A stretch of DNA of 64,000 bases from NCBI GenBank assembly GCA_964448605.1, contig CAYUZV010000005.1, positions 1,465-65,464 of the forward strand. Reading direction: 5' to 3'. Below, piece after piece: positions 26,997 through 36,820 of this stretch (positions are counted from its first letter, which is position 1; each line of letters begins with the position of its first letter). Both the position numbers and the translations under genes were made by a program. A model generated the notes under the pieces. It was given only the letters and a program-made list of their open reading frames with translations, was not told the origin of the DNA and made no database searches. Source of the stretch: Candidatus Woesearchaeota archaeon (GTDB lineage Archaea > Nanobdellota > Nanobdellia > Pacearchaeales > GW2011-AR1).

Positions 26997-27521
26997 ATGG
27001 ATTCCTTGAATAATATGCAAGAAATTTATGTTGAGAATGTTAATGAAGTTTTGAGGAATAAGGTGAAGATAGAGAAAGCTTTGAAGGTTAATTTGAAAAA
27101 TAAAGGTAAGAATTTTTTTATTGAGGGAGAGGGGGATGATGAGTTTGTTGGTTTGAAGGTTTTGGAGGCAATTGATTGCGGGTTTTCTGCTAATTGTGCT
27201 TTGCAGTTGAAGGATGAGAATGTTTTATTTCAAACAATTAATATTAAGGATTTGACTAAAAGGAATGATTTGGAAAGAGTTAGGGCTCGTATTATTGGGA
27301 CTCATGGAAAAGCTCTTGGAACTCTTAAGCATTTGACTAAGTGTGATGTTAGTCTACATGATAACACTATTGGAATAATTGGAGATGCAGAAGAAATTGA
27401 AGATGCTATGCAGGCTGTTTCTTCTCTGGTTCATGGTTCTAAACATGGAAATGTTTATAGTAGATTGGAAAAGGTTCGGAGTCGGAAAAAAAGGGAGAGG
27501 GTTAGGGGGATGGTTGAATAG
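26997..27521 (+). CDS. KH-domain RNA-binding protein (Dim2/Pno1-like)
   Basis: Two KH-like units, including the GxxG-like IIGTHGKALGTLK. It lies next to aIF1A, as is usual. Confidence 0.65.
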   Translation: MDSLNNMQEIYVENVNEVLRNKVKIEKALKVNLKNKGKNFFIEGEGDDEFVGLKVLEAIDCGFSANCALQLKDENVLFQTINIKDLTKRNDLERVRARIIGTHGKALGTLKHLTKCDVSLHDNTIGIIGDAEEIEDAMQAVSSLVHGSKHGNVYSRLEKVRSRKKRERVRGMVE

Positions 27522-27524
27522 GTT

Positions 27525-27781
27525 TTAACCATATATTCTCGGTCTTTTATCAATATCTGAAATAAACAATAGACTATCTTTCTTATAAGCAGAATAAAGT
27601 ATTCTGTAATCTCCAACTCTTACTCTAAATGTTTTATCTTTTTTATTAAGAATTCTTTTACAATCAGAAGGAAAGGGATTTTCTCTTAGTTTGTTTATTT
27701 TATTTTTTAACCTATCGTTAGGTCTTTATCACATTTAGATAAGAATTTTGTTGATTTGCTACTTAATTTATAATCGAGCAT
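27525..27781 (-). pseudogene. RelE/ParE-family toxin, frameshifted
   Basis: MLDYKLSSKSTKFLSKCDKDLTIG* continues in a shifted frame as RLKNKINKLRENPFPSDCKRILNKKDKTFRVRVGDYRILYSAYKKDSLLFISDIDKRPRIYG*. It is a paralogue of 29198-29458. Confidence 0.6.
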
Positions 27782-27975
27782 TTTTCAATCTCTCTTTTTC
27801 TACATCTTCAAAAGTAAATGTTTCTCCTCTTTCTAGTTCTACTAAACTTTCTTCATGTCTTGCTTCTTCTTCAAGAGTTAGAATTGTATCTGGATCAATT
27901 ATATTTTTTTTATAATATTTATATCTACTCTTAATTGTTTTAATTCATTTAAGATTTGTTGATTTGTTGTTCCAT
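27768..27975 (-). pseudogene. Antitoxin of the decayed RelE pair (7-nt deletion after codon 4)
   Basis: atggaacaacaa is followed by atcaacaaatctta, whereas copies B and C have atggaacaacaaACAATAAatcaacaaatctta. This gives M-E-Q-Q-I-N-K-S-stop. The downstream frame ILNELKQLRVDINIIKKNIIDPD...ERLKNARL is still open. Confidence 0.55.
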
Positions 27976-28016
27976 TGTTAATTTATTAAGAAGTTGAAGG
28001 TTTTTGGTGTTTTTGG
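27905..28016 (-). repeat. TA promoter + leader-peptide cassette, copy A (degenerate)
   Basis: It matches copies B and C except for the 7-nt deletion and the loss of the CCTTAAAA TATA-like core (caccaaaaacaccaaaaacc). Confidence 0.8.
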
Positions 28017-28065
28017 TGTTTTTGATATCTATATAATTTTAAATAATCTTGAATCTTATTAAATT

Positions 28066-28380
28066 ATGAGATATTTAGTTAAAACATTGCCAGTAGTTGA
28101 AAAACAAATGCAAAAAATGTCTATCAATAACCAGAATCGGTTTGGAAATCTTATTAATCAAATTGAAAATAATCCTTATATTGGAGATTCCTTGCAAATT
28201 AGAATTATTAGGGAAAAAAGATTTAATGGGAAGAGAATCTATTTTGTTATATTTGAAGATTTAAGGGTAGTTTTAATAGTTGCGATTAGTGATAAAAAGA
28301 CTCAACAGAAAACTATTGATTTTATTAGAGATAATTTAAATGAATATAGAGAATTATTAAAGGAATTGCTAAATAATTAA
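28066..28380 (+). CDS. RelE/ParE-superfamily toxin-like protein (putative)
   Basis: ..NQIENNPYIGDSLQIRIIREKRFNGKRIYFVIFEDLRVVLIVAISDKK resembles the RelE/ParE core (NP..G..L......R.G.YR..Y.I......V.I..I..R). Confidence 0.45.
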   Translation: MRYLVKTLPVVEKQMQKMSINNQNRFGNLINQIENNPYIGDSLQIRIIREKRFNGKRIYFVIFEDLRVVLIVAISDKKTQQKTIDFIRDNLNEYRELLKELLNN

Positions 28381-28550
28381 TTTAGAGCTACGATTTTTCT
28401 CTGTCTTAGTTCTTCTATACCTTTTTGGAGTTGTTCTTCTATATCCGTTAAAGGTTCTTCTTCTCTTATATTTTTTTTTATAATATTTATATCTACTCTT
28501 AATTGTTTTAATTCATTTAAGATTTGTTGATTTATTGTTTGTTGTTCCAT
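28377..28550 (-). CDS. 57-aa antitoxin-like protein carrying the shared N-terminal cassette
   Basis: MEQQTINQQILNELKQLRVDINIIKKNIREEEPLTDIEEQLQKGIEELRQRKIVALN. The first 25 codons are identical to 29455-29655. Its stop overlaps the convergent 28066-28380 stop. It is below the ORF-track cut-off. Confidence 0.5.
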   Translation of the reverse strand: MEQQTINQQILNELKQLRVDINIIKKNIREEEPLTDIEEQLQKGIEELRQRKIVALN

Positions 28551-28594
28551 TGTTAATTTATTAAGAAGTTGAAGGTTTTAAGGTTTTTGGTGTT
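28476..28594 (-). repeat. TA promoter + leader-peptide cassette, copy B
   Basis: About 117 nt match copy C (29581-29698) by eye. On the minus strand it reads CACCAAAAACCTTAAAACC, then 26 nt, then ATG and 25 codons. Confidence 0.85.
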
Positions 28595-28817
28595 AAACAT
28601 ATTCTGCAAAATCTTCGGGGTTGATTTTTGAATCTTTAATAATTCTTGATAAAGTTCCTTTTTTTAATTGAGGGTGCATTGGGACTGTTAATTTGATAAT
28701 TTCACCTTCTTTCTTTTTTTCTAATCTGACATGACTTCCCCTTTGTCTAACAATTTGAAAATCGAGTTTATTAAGAATTTTTACTAATTCCCTGCCAGAT
28801 ATCTGTGGAAGCTTCAT
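28593..28817 (-). CDS. hicA: HicA toxin
   Basis: ISGRELVKILNKLDFQIVRQRGSHVRL...TVPMHP.LKKGTL..I is the YcfA/HicA signature. Confidence 0.85.
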   Translation of the reverse strand: MKLPQISGRELVKILNKLDFQIVRQRGSHVRLEKKKEGEIIKLTVPMHPQLKKGTLSRIIKDSKINPEDFAEYV

Positions 28818-28818
28818 T

Positions 28819-29016
28819 TTAAATTGTTATATCGATTATCTTCCCTTTATCATTAAATTCTTCAGGTTCTTCTTCTAAGTATAATTGAATTGCTTCTTTT
28901 ATATTTTCTACACATTCTTCGATACTCTCTCCTTGTGAAATGCATCCAGGCAGGGCAGGAACAAAAACAGTATATCCGCCTTCTTCTTGTTCTTCAAGAT
29001 ATATTTTTAGGTCCAT
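28819..29016 (-). CDS. hicB: HicB antitoxin (UPF0150 fold, no DNA-binding domain)
   Basis: EEGGYTVFVPALPGCISQGESIEECVENIKEAIQLYLE is the typical HicB N-domain. Confidence 0.8.
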   Translation of the reverse strand: MDLKIYLEEQEEGGYTVFVPALPGCISQGESIEECVENIKEAIQLYLEEEPEEFNDKGKIIDITI

Positions 29017-29019
29017 TTT

Positions 29020-29121
29020 CTAATATTTTTCCTTTGATATTCTTTCCTTAATTATCAAAATATCTTTATGAATTTCATCTAATTTCTTCATTATCTCTTG
29101 ATTTGATACTTCTTGTTCCAT
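29020..29121 (-). CDS. 33-aa peptide related to the shared antitoxin N-terminal module, upstream of hicBA
   Basis: MEQEVSNQEIMKKLDEIHKDILIIKERISKEKY. It is preceded by cassette copy D and ends 3 nt before the hicB ATG. Confidence 0.4.
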   Translation of the reverse strand: MEQEVSNQEIMKKLDEIHKDILIIKERISKEKY

Positions 29122-29162
29122 TGTTAATTATTAAGAAGTTGAGGGTTTTAAGGTTTTTGGTA
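29113..29162 (-). repeat. TA promoter cassette, copy D (partial, diverged)
   Basis: ttgttccattgttaattattaagaagttgagggttttaaggtttttggt matches the promoter-proximal part of copies B and C with a few changes. Confidence 0.7.
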
Positions 29163-29197
29163 ATGAGTATCCAGACAAAAAAGAATAATACTATTTA

Positions 29198-29458
29198 CTA
29201 ATAAACTCTCGGACGCTTTTCTATCTTAATGATGATTATTTTTTTAGTCTGATAATTAATTCTATATAGGGTTCTATGAATTCCGGTTCTTATTCTGAAT
29301 ACTAAATCTTTTAAACCTTTAATCCGTTTTGCATCTTGAGGGACGGGATTTTCAGAAAGAGTTTCTTCAATTTTATTGATTATTCTTTTTGAAATATGTT
29401 TGTCTTGTTGTTTTAGAAATTTAGTGGGTTGTTTGTCATATTCTATTTTAAATTTCAT
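29198..29458 (-). CDS. relE: RelE/ParE-family toxin
   Basis: ..KRIINKIEETLSENPVPQDAKRIKGLKDLVFRIRTGIHRTLYRINYQTKKIIIIKIEKRPRVY. There is a 4-nt overlap with the upstream antitoxin. Confidence 0.75.
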   Translation of the reverse strand: MKFKIEYDKQPTKFLKQQDKHISKRIINKIEETLSENPVPQDAKRIKGLKDLVFRIRTGIHRTLYRINYQTKKIIIIKIEKRPRVY

Positions 29459-29655
29459 ATTTCTAATTCTTCTTTTAGGTCTTCAGAAGATATCAATGCA
29501 CCATTCTTTTCATTTTCATAACTTTCATCAAGTAATTGTTCTTCTTCTTCTGTCAATTGAGAATCCCCATTTAAGTCTTCTTTTATAATATTTATATCTA
29601 CTCTTAATTGTTTTAATTCATTTAAGATTTGTTGATTTATTGTTTGTTGTTCCAT
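29455..29655 (-). CDS. Antitoxin partner of RelE (family not recognised)
   Basis: 66 aa, acidic, with the N-terminal shared module MEQQTINQQILNELKQLRVDINIIK. It is leaderless relative to the cassette TATA. Confidence 0.65.
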   Translation of the reverse strand: MEQQTINQQILNELKQLRVDINIIKEDLNGDSQLTEEEEQLLDESYENEKNGALISSEDLKEELEI

Positions 29656-29698
29656 TGTTAATTTATTAAGAAGTTGAAGGTTTTAAGGTTTTTGGTGT
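29581..29698 (-). repeat. TA promoter + leader-peptide cassette, copy C
   Basis: See copy B. Confidence 0.85.
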
Positions 29699-29705
29699 TT
29701 GAGAC

Positions 29706-29876
29706 ATCCTGGGCAATGCTCGGCACTCCACTCGCAGTTATTTTTATAAAATATACTCTGCTTGTGAAATCCCTCGGTCGAACAGATAAATCTGATTGAA
29801 TTTTTTGAGACCTATTGCAAGAGGATGATAATAATATAATATCGCTGTAAGCGATATTATTATATCCCTCGGGCAA
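29706..29876. repeat. 171-bp repeat R1 bounded by tRNA-Tyr 3'-end copies
   Basis: It matches R2 apart from one substitution (ctgcTtgtg versus ctgcTcgtg) and a degenerate left end (atcctgggcaa). It contains the hairpin aatatcgct-gta-agcgatatt and a TTTATAAA motif. Confidence 0.9.
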
Positions 29877-30005
29877 TCTCAGCCCTCACTTTTAGTAATG
29901 ATTTATGAATAAAGATAGTCTAAAAGTGAGAACTTCGGTCGAACTTAAGTTCGATTCTTTGCCTAAAGGGTAATAATACATAATCATCGAAAATGATTAT
30001 GTTCA

Positions 30006-30178
30006 ATCCCTCGGGCAATGCTCGGCACTCCACTCGCAGTTATTTTTATAAAATATACTCTGCTCGTGAAATCCCTCGGTCGAACAGATAAATCTGATTG
30101 AATTTTTTGAGACCTATTGCAAGAGGATGATAATAATATAATATCGCTGTAAGCGATATTATTATATCCCTCGGGCAA
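30006..30178. repeat. 173-bp repeat R2, directly abutting and sharing the 3' end of tRNA-Tyr
   Basis: It starts and ends with atccctcgggcaa (reverse complement TTGCCCGAGGGAT), which is the tRNA-Tyr T-stem/acceptor 3' end. The period to R1 is 302 bp. Confidence 0.9.
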
Positions 30179-30239
30179 GAGTCGAACTTGCATTAAGCGG
30201 TCTACAGCCGCCTGTAATAAACCGTTATACGACCGAGGG
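30167..30239 (-). tRNA. tRNA-Tyr (GUA)
   Basis: Acceptor CCCTCGG/CCGAGGG with the archaeal C1:G72 pair. Anticodon arm is GGCGG-CTGTAGA-CCGCT and T arm is GCAAG-TTCGACT-CTTGC. A TATA-like CTTTAAATA lies upstream. Confidence 0.85.
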
Positions 30240-36761: not shown

Positions 36762-36778
36762 TTTTAAGGTTTTTGGTG
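36762..36778 (-). promoter_or_regulatory. BRE/TATA-like motif CACCAAAAACCTTAAAA upstream of the psmA-exosome operon
   Basis: The same 17-mer occurs in TA cassettes B (28576-28592) and C (29681-29697); copy D matches 16 of 17. Here it lies about 157 nt upstream of the psmA ATG. Confidence 0.45.
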
Positions 36779-36820
36779 TGGAATGTTTTAACTAAATAGT
36801 AACAAAAGATTTAAATAGTC

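Follow-up and report, generated by a model that had tools for sequence, protein, structure and literature searches.

Within a 64,000-nucleotide (nt) stretch of the Candidatus Woesearchaeota archaeon assembly GCA_964448605.1 (contig CAYUZV010000005.1, positions 1,465-65,464 of the forward strand; GTDB lineage Archaea; Nanobdellota; Nanobdellia; Pacearchaeales; GW2011-AR1), referred to below as the window, four small toxin-antitoxin (TA) units of type II form a tandem array in the variable region 3' of tRNA-Tyr. The units carry copies of one promoter and N-terminal coding cassette, two of which are identical, and from the comparison with orthologous sequences we attribute this identity to homologous recombination among the tandem paralogues, with gene conversion as its simplest form. 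The genome of the window (G000; other G numbers denote related genomes and L numbers the loci or contigs compared) is a metagenome-assembled genome (MAG) of 26 contigs, 1.01 Mb and 30% GC that is 85% complete, and a Pfam scan of the window detected genes for archaeal aIF1A and for KH/Dim2. The interval between tRNA-Tyr and the KH gene, whose 3' end lies at 27521, is filled by the array. Proceeding from the tRNA, it consists of unit C (aRelB-like antitoxin and RelE), unit D (a 33-codon stub followed by hicB-hicA), unit B (a 57-amino acid (aa) antitoxin and a RelE-fold protein) and unit A (a frameshifted pair). A first-pass annotation made from the letters of this region had proposed a TA island with four different contexts downstream of the repeated segment, and both proposals were borne out, as the open reading frame (ORF) list and a family scan identified RelE, hicBA and RelE-fold genes in the four units.

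On the minus strand the cassette reads CACCAAAAACCTTAAAACC, which forms a B recognition element (BRE) and TATA promoter, followed by 26 nt and then by ATGGAACAACAA..., and four copies of it lie between 27.9 and 29.7 kb, at the places annotated earlier (Table 1). Copies B and C, which had been judged by eye to match over about 117 nt, share a longest exact match of 119 nt, and with a blastn E-value of 1e-63 against the whole 1.01-Mb genome the similarity of the copies lies far beyond what chance would produce. Copy A shows no substitutions relative to B and C. The alignment confirmed both its 7-nt deletion, located after codon 4, and the loss of its core, where CTTAAAACC is replaced by a duplicated ACCAAAAACC. 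Copy D was correctly described as diverged, with 48 of 50 nt shared in the promoter (96%) and only 64% identity over the first 75 coding nt. Outside the array, blastn across the whole genome detected an 18-nt promoter core at window 36762-36779 as well as an 85% match over 47 nt to an unlinked paralogue on contig C2 that is not homogenised, and no further cassette DNA.

To compare the units with their counterparts, we used orthologues from metagenomes and from further genomes of the GTDB genus to which G000 belongs, with G055:C87 and P0004/L001 representing the A type and G008:C72 and L116 representing the B type. Over the first 75 coding nt, units B and C of G000 were 100% identical, while the cassette was 87% identical to the B-type gene of G008, 84% to the A-type gene of G055 and 87% to L001, and these three were 79-83% identical among themselves. 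The 96 nt after codon 25 gave the opposite grouping: unit A was 72% identical to its G055 orthologue and unit B 73% identical to its G008 orthologue, whereas units A, B and C of G000 were 54-59% identical among themselves, a background of ~55%. The 5' parts thus group by genome and the 3' parts by unit type. Given an expected identity of 84-87%, the probability of 119 successive matches is 1e-9 to 6e-8. Within-genome paralogues were closer to each other than to their orthologues in the tract only, the boundaries of the tract were sharp and its flanks discordant, which is the pattern looked for in a test of gene conversion and which upholds the earlier suggestion of recombination or gene conversion. 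The tract shared by A and B runs ~13 nt past the B/C boundary, and codons 26-29 of unit B (AAA AAT ATA AGA) resemble the A type (GAA AAT ATG ATT in G055) and are unlike the B type (GAA AGA TTA CCA in G008 and L116), so that a donor from the A lineage is indicated. In the mechanism that we favor, recombination between neighboring paralogues would have replaced the promoter and the initial 25-29 codons in both B and C by a single sequence, through non-reciprocal gene conversion from a donor that most likely belonged to the A-type lineage, and unit A would have decayed after this homogenisation.

A different history, in which circular TA cassettes were inserted serially by single crossover in the shared module or by site-specific integration at the 3' end of tRNA-Tyr and in which the identity is a by-product of module duplication, appears unlikely to us. 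In its favor, the 3' flank of tRNA-Tyr is, judging from the related loci, a hot spot for TA units, with B units starting 16-17 nt after the tRNA in G008 and L116 and a hicBA promoter starting 7 nt after it in G009. In the window, the 12-mer from the 3' end of the tRNA is reiterated upstream of cassette C (the last copy, TTGCCCAGGA, is degenerate and lies 9 nt before the cassette), and the hicA stop abuts the boundary of cassette B exactly. The genome also encodes four tyrosine recombinase matches (PF00589), but all of them are found on other contigs, and there is no integrase in or beside the island. An array of the integron-like or integrase-borne kind finds no recombinase gene in the island and no repeated site between the units except the promoter itself. 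Convincing attachment (att) site copies between the units are missing as well, the candidate before unit B being hicA coding sequence that is kept in orthologues. Moreover, serial insertion would require the incoming and resident modules to have been identical beforehand, yet orthologues are 13-20% apart, and the tract ends differ between pairs of copies, A-B being the longer one.

Purifying selection alone, keeping promoter and helix identical with no recent recombination so that one regulator or dimer interface fits all units, is scarcely credible as the cause of the identity. It would agree with the N-terminal helix being the most conserved part of the family and with the BRE/TATA core being a consensus throughout the genus, but the identity spans every synonymous site as well as the 26-nt spacer, where equally constrained orthologues differ at 13-17%, pseudogene A retains the identical sequence, and the unlinked paralogue on contig C2 has diverged. 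Since the identity extends to synonymous sites and to a pseudogene, selection at the protein level cannot explain it. We also weighed the possibility that the metagenome assembler collapsed or homogenised paralogues or strains, or that it mis-ordered units at the repeats, which the fragmented and incomplete state of the MAG might suggest. In de Bruijn assemblers, bubble merging can remove a small number of genuine differences from repeats that are nearly identical. Yet ~85% identity cannot become 100% over 119 nt through an assembler, every unit has unique flanks, the indels in copy A show that the copies were resolved separately, and the arrangement of tRNA-Tyr, B57, ParE and a membrane protein recurs in the independent genome G008 and on contig L116, all of which makes an assembly artefact highly improbable.

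Units A, B and C encode antitoxins of one modular family, which is represented by an intact pair in unit C. The toxin of this pair, RelE86, passed the PF05016 model (E 2.2e-5; 25.4 bits with a cut-off of 23 bits), and its best match in the PDB was aRelE (1wmi_A, E 3.3e-6) over the full length (residues 1-86). The arrangement of the antitoxin directly upstream of relE in one operon was also found in relatives. C66 and B57 belong to no Pfam or NCBIfam family, single-sequence PDB searches likewise gave none, and none of the 102 family members scanned had a meaningful Pfam match. The earlier statement that the antitoxin family is not recognisable therefore holds as far as curated models are concerned, but the proteins can be placed in a large uncurated family. 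When 1.8 billion representatives were searched with a profile of seven sequences, 528 clusters (50% identity) were retrieved at E <= 1e-3, with homologues of mostly 57-75 aa among the 150 clusters listed, and a profile search found the family in 25 of 41 related genomes; the closest C-type homologue was P0002. The top PDB match of the seven-sequence profile was 1wmi_B, the aRelB antitoxin of Pyrococcus horikoshii (E 0.008, residues 8-60). Because the toxin partner clearly matches 1wmi_A, we call the family aRelB-like, with P. horikoshii aRelB as its nearest solved relative, a tentative placement that does not claim homology as proven. As the citation of Takagi et al. 2005 in PMC4803016 has it, 1WMI is aRelB-aRelE of P. 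horikoshii OT3. In both systems a RelE toxin of 86-90 aa is preceded by an antitoxin of ~66 aa. They differ in that the 5' module described here is common to several antitoxins with different toxin partners and is homogenised at the DNA level.

The AlphaFold2 (AF2) model of C66, computed with the family alignment, contains helices at residues 2-31, 36-50 and 57-63 (predicted local distance difference test (pLDDT) 91), and the first of these has a hydrophobic a/d heptad pattern of I10, L14, L17, I21, I24 and L28 with a spacing of 4-3-4-3-4. A family profile built from 102 sequences matched only designed coiled-coil peptides in the PDB. In our reading, this N-terminal helix of ~30 residues most likely pairs as a dimeric coiled coil, in the manner of the zipper suggested for Pyrococcus aRelB, which is described in a review as "potentially leucine zipper dimerization" (PMC4803016) and which also is without a classical DNA-binding fold. 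The variable C-terminal part would bind the particular toxin, which is a RelE of one of two types or the RelE-fold protein of 104 aa. The first-pass annotation had offered a shared helix for DNA binding or dimerisation that might allow cross-regulation, and of these functions dimerisation agrees with the predicted heptad helix. A role in DNA binding appears unlikely: residues 1-9 (MEQQTINQQ) contain no K or R, the family consensus likewise contains none, and the module has no known DNA-binding fold. The cross-regulation reading is unsupported because the module is without basic DNA-reading residues, and in this respect the N-terminus differs from that of aRelB, for which basic residues have been proposed in DNA recognition. 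Across genomes, the cassette-type N-terminus was found with at least four C-terminal types, and B-type C-termini were found with two different N-termini.

With respect to transcription, TTAWAWA motifs peaked at -28/-27 from the ATG, with 179 hits among the 806 ORFs of at least 120 aa in G000, and the genome-wide peak of BRE plus TATA was located at -34/-33 in the same ORFs. This sharp TATA peak suggests that many genes of G000 are leaderless. Shine-Dalgarno-like motifs peaked at -8 to -12 (108/341 hits), and the genome mixes leaderless and Shine-Dalgarno-led genes. The cassette TATA (CTTAAAA) starts at -35/-34, compared with -29/-28 for the genome-wide peak, and no Shine-Dalgarno motif precedes the ATG of the cassette, so that transcripts are predicted to be leaderless or nearly so, with a 5' untranslated region (UTR) of ~6 nt; the leaderless-type start proposed earlier would agree with this prediction. 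Transcription of each unit would start from a separate BRE/TATA promoter located 26 nt upstream of the ATG. The core CCAAAAACCTTA[AT]AAC is not specific to antitoxins. In relatives (L020, L022 and L024) it stands ahead of small genes, among them a ribbon-helix-helix (RHH) gene, and it is also present before hicB in G009 and at the window position 36762-36779 mentioned above. The BRE/TATA core is a generic promoter consensus of the genus that is used ahead of unrelated genes as well, while the 26-nt spacer is specific to the cassette.

Nothing else in the region is as unusual as the convergent pair of unit B, since the two genes of a type II system normally share a transcript. Here, the genes for B57 and ParE104 face each other with a 4-nt overlap, each with its own sequence-predicted promoter, and the TATA-like TTTAAAT of ParE104 lies exactly at -28 from its ATG. 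ParE104 passes no curated sequence model and gave weak matches only, with 14.4 bits for PF15781 (cut-off 28) and 18 bits for TIGR02683 (cut-off 62.85); PF15781 was matched weakly by 9 of 29 homologues (best E 4e-4). Its AF2 model (pLDDT 90.7) shows a beta-alpha-alpha-beta-beta-beta order plus two helices, and Foldseek returned 12 PDB matches at E <= 1e-3, each of which is a toxin-antitoxin entry of RelE, HigB2 or PfiAT (prob 1.0; target-normalised template modeling (TM) scores of 0.51-0.80), the top ones being RelE structures including 1wmi_A (0.70-0.80 for the first seven). As modeled, ParE104 therefore has a RelE/ParE fold. Its homologues form 33 clusters. In G008, G013, L116, L117 and L118, as in G000, the next ORF is convergent, codes for 52-57 aa and overlaps or abuts by a few nt, and the small proteins of these pairs share the C-terminal motif EEQLxxGxExLxxGKIxxL combined with N-termini of two kinds, either the cassette type or MEIVSIPKKQYEEM... 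Unit B has no co-directional partner ORF here, and none is conserved. What had been annotated as a 57-aa ORF convergent with a RelE/ParE-like gene is thus confirmed and turns out to be a unit conserved in six contigs and not an accident.

A comparison between G000 and G008 (locus L044) revealed that unit B is better conserved (ParE 74% aa and 77% nt identity) than its neighbors, the membrane protein (53% aa, 67% nt) and the KH protein (61% aa), which hints at stronger constraint or at a later exchange of the unit.

Unit D combines a hicB-hicA pair with the diverged copy of the module. The presence of HicA and of the N-terminal HicB domain in the order hicB-hicA corresponds to HicAB systems and to the nine hicBA orthologues found in the genus. 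HicB of this unit differs from the usual form, as it is without the C-terminal DNA-binding domain (RHH or helix-turn-helix (HTH)), and HicB orthologues in the genus are similarly 57-67 aa in length. The nine orthologous operons have a leaderless-type promoter ~20-25 nt before the hicB ATG and no stub ORF upstream, and D33 has no close homologue in 49 genomes. Since the nine relatives have their own leaderless-type promoter and none has the stub, the native hicBA promoter of G000 appears to have been displaced by the cassette-type promoter together with the truncated N-terminus of an older antitoxin, and only in G000 does the operon begin with a borrowed promoter and with an antitoxin stub of 33 codons in the hicB frame. 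The 33-aa peptide annotated ahead of hicB-hicA is accordingly present here and is not part of hicBA in any relative. A role of D33 as a leader peptide of hicBA was considered and rejected, no counterpart having been found at the nine hicBA loci or in the 49 genomes. The profile match of D33 to the antitoxin N-terminus continues through the TAG, and D33 may either be translated as such or be the remnant of a zipper-HicB fusion broken by this stop. At the D33/hicB junction (29014-29022), read-through or a reverted stop would yield such a fusion; the shared frame has a chance probability of 1 in 3, and a fusion was not seen in relatives.

In unit A both genes are decayed, and tblastn covers only residues 25-86 of the relE product in one frame. 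An intact A-type orthologue with a 67-aa antitoxin and an 86-aa RelE is present in G055:C87. Antitoxin paralogues also occur outside the array (Table 1), and at three of these loci the RelE gene is broken or missing, by a stop at C2:32878-33319, by a frameshift at C12:20565-20947 and in the solitary antitoxin at C2:45601-45792, so that decay of the toxin with retention of the antitoxin is a recurrent pattern in G000.

Table 1. Features of the array, listed from tRNA-Tyr to the KH gene (window positions), and antitoxin paralogues elsewhere in G000 (contig:position)
Feature	Position	Strand	Remarks
tRNA-Tyr (30167-30239), then three small elements	29700-30239	minus	each element ends in a copy of the tRNA 3' 12-mer
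Cassette copy C	29581-29699	minus	BRE/TATA promoter (CACCAAAAACCTTAAAACC), 26-nt spacer, antitoxin codons 1-25
C66, intact 66-aa aRelB-like antitoxin	29455-29655	minus	N-terminal heptad helix and C-terminal toxin-binding part (predicted)
RelE86, intact 86-aa RelE-family toxin	29198-29458	minus	overlaps C66 stop by 4 nt (ATGA)
Cassette copy D, promoter part only	29122-29165	minus	96% identity to B/C across 50 nt
D33, 33-codon truncated and diverged N-terminal module	29020-29121	minus	TAG stop, one codon (AAA) ahead of the hicB ATG and in the same frame
hicB, 65-aa antitoxin, N-terminal HicB domain only	28819-29016	minus	PF15919 E 2e-12, profile positions 3-50 of 123
hicA, 74-aa toxin	28593-28817	minus	PF07927 E 1e-17; TAA stop abuts 5' boundary of cassette B
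Cassette copy B	28476-28594	minus	119 nt identical to copy C
B57, 57-aa antitoxin-like protein	28377-28550	minus	cassette N-terminus plus C-terminal motif EEQLxxGxExLxxxKIxxL; convergent with ParE104, 4-nt overlap
ParE104, 104-aa RelE/ParE-fold protein (modeled)	28066-28380	plus	own leaderless-type promoter, TTTAAAT at 28038-28044
Cassette copy A	~27904-28022	minus	7-nt deletion in coding part; TATA core lost (ACCAAAAAC duplicated)
Pseudogene of A-type aRelB-like antitoxin	27768-27975	minus	two frameshifts: 7-nt deletion and an A8 run (the reading frame requires A9)
Pseudogene of A-type relE	27525-27781	minus	one frameshift near 27718
Antitoxin paralogue	C2:33116-33319		followed by RelE with in-frame stop
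Antitoxin paralogue	C12:20759-20947		followed by frameshifted RelE
Antitoxin paralogue	C5:69375-69572		followed by intact RelE
Antitoxin paralogue	C2:45601-45792		solitary antitoxin

As a whole, an array of TA units with modular zipper antitoxins, homogenised in its 5' module by gene conversion and containing a decayed unit A, is the explanation that we consider probable. Several observations count against it or limit parts of it. Reciprocal crossovers, or insertion of the Campbell type at the shared module, would be indistinguishable here from gene conversion, and dimerisation as well as toxin neutralisation are predictions only. The homology to aRelB is marginal, as next to the E-value of 0.008 hhalign gave a probability of only 42%, the match to 1wmi_B disappears with the broader profile of 102 sequences, which makes the link to aRelB a weak one, and Foldseek was uninformative on the antitoxin monomer model. 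In addition, the cassette TATA is located 6 nt farther from the ATG than the genome-wide leaderless spacing. If the zippers do pair, mixed C66-B57 dimers are one possible consequence of their identity. A bolder reading, which we regard as rather doubtful, is that the identical zippers would force C66, B57 and possibly D33 into mixed dimers while the identical promoters provide the same input, so that recurrent conversion would keep one co-regulated network uniform, and that the pair of B57 and the RelE-fold protein would form a distinct TA architecture in which antisense control through the 3' overlap is added to neutralisation.

The surroundings of tRNA-Tyr are variable in other members of the genus as well. 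An element of 88-156 nt follows tRNA-Tyr in at least nine genus genomes (L077, L078, L082, L087, L092, L097, L098, L099 and L103), and most of these elements consist of a hairpin, GCAAGATGTTG, GTTCGACCGAG, a second hairpin and a copy of the tRNA 3' 12-mer. The terminal 12-mer equals the 3' end of the genome's own tRNA in six of nine genomes, even though the 12-mer varies among genomes, which is compatible with repeated integration and also with a functional RNA that has to match the tRNA. An Rfam scan of window 29700-30166 found nothing. The idea that a decayed tRNA 3' end precedes every unit, as expected from serial site-specific integration, was dropped, the copy before unit B being conserved hicA coding sequence and the one before unit D being too short to judge. 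Arrays of small leaderless genes downstream of tRNA-Tyr were also seen elsewhere in the clade: L116 (a 27.9-kb JGI 3300033143 contig) has, besides the B57/ParE pair and hicBA, a 117-aa gene and another HicA gene with a 69-aa ORF ahead of it, and L022 (G012:C20) carries two paralogues of 44-47 aa whose promoters are related and not 100% identical.

At the distal end of the array, the KH gene abuts the decayed relE (27521-27530). Among 29 loci scanned in relatives, the KH/Dim2 gene is followed by tRNA-Asn within ~0.1-0.5 kb in 23 and one more shows tRNA-Ala, with no TA island at these places. Because the KH gene of relatives precedes tRNA-Asn, which G000 has on another contig (C2:88197-88269), the distal KH junction appears to be a rearrangement specific to G000, with the island marking the breakpoint. 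An ancestral insertion of the island beside the KH gene was rejected, as relatives have tRNA-Asn without a TA island at this place.

Literature searches found no report of this arrangement, and its features can be compared with two known modes of evolution. N- and C-terminal domains of type II antitoxins are reportedly shuffled between TA families. The array resembles this "mix and match" evolution in that one N-terminal module is joined to several toxin-specific C-terminal parts and in that C-terminal type B is joined to two different N-termini. It differs in that the shuffled module would be a coiled-coil helix plus promoter and not a DNA-binding domain, and in that the exchange is visible as 100% identical tracts inside one 2.2-kb array. 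Concerted evolution by gene conversion is known from tandem paralogues of bacteria and archaea such as rRNA operons, tuf genes and antigen gene families, with which the array has in common an identity tract with sharp ends, paralogues that are closer to each other than to orthologues, and a restriction to linked copies. In contrast to these cases, the tract comprises only the promoter and 25-29 codons, and it joins genes with unalignable 3' halves, a pseudogene included.

The TA island itself is an ordinary kind of region, and the general picture of TA biology is unchanged by it. Three of its features are notable, namely the homogenised promoter and N-terminal module, the large uncurated aRelB-like family and the conserved convergent TA-like pair. 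The analysis defines a large antitoxin family, predicted to be coiled-coil, of 528 clusters that is without a curated model, common in DPANN archaea and partnered with RelE-family toxins. A conserved convergent arrangement of toxin and antitoxin would escape standard TA finders, which are based on operons. The swapping of antitoxin modules was already known; here it is visible at nucleotide resolution, promoter included, within a single short array, which thereby offers a concrete case in which to ask whether cross-talk between TA pairs results from the N-terminal modules that they share.

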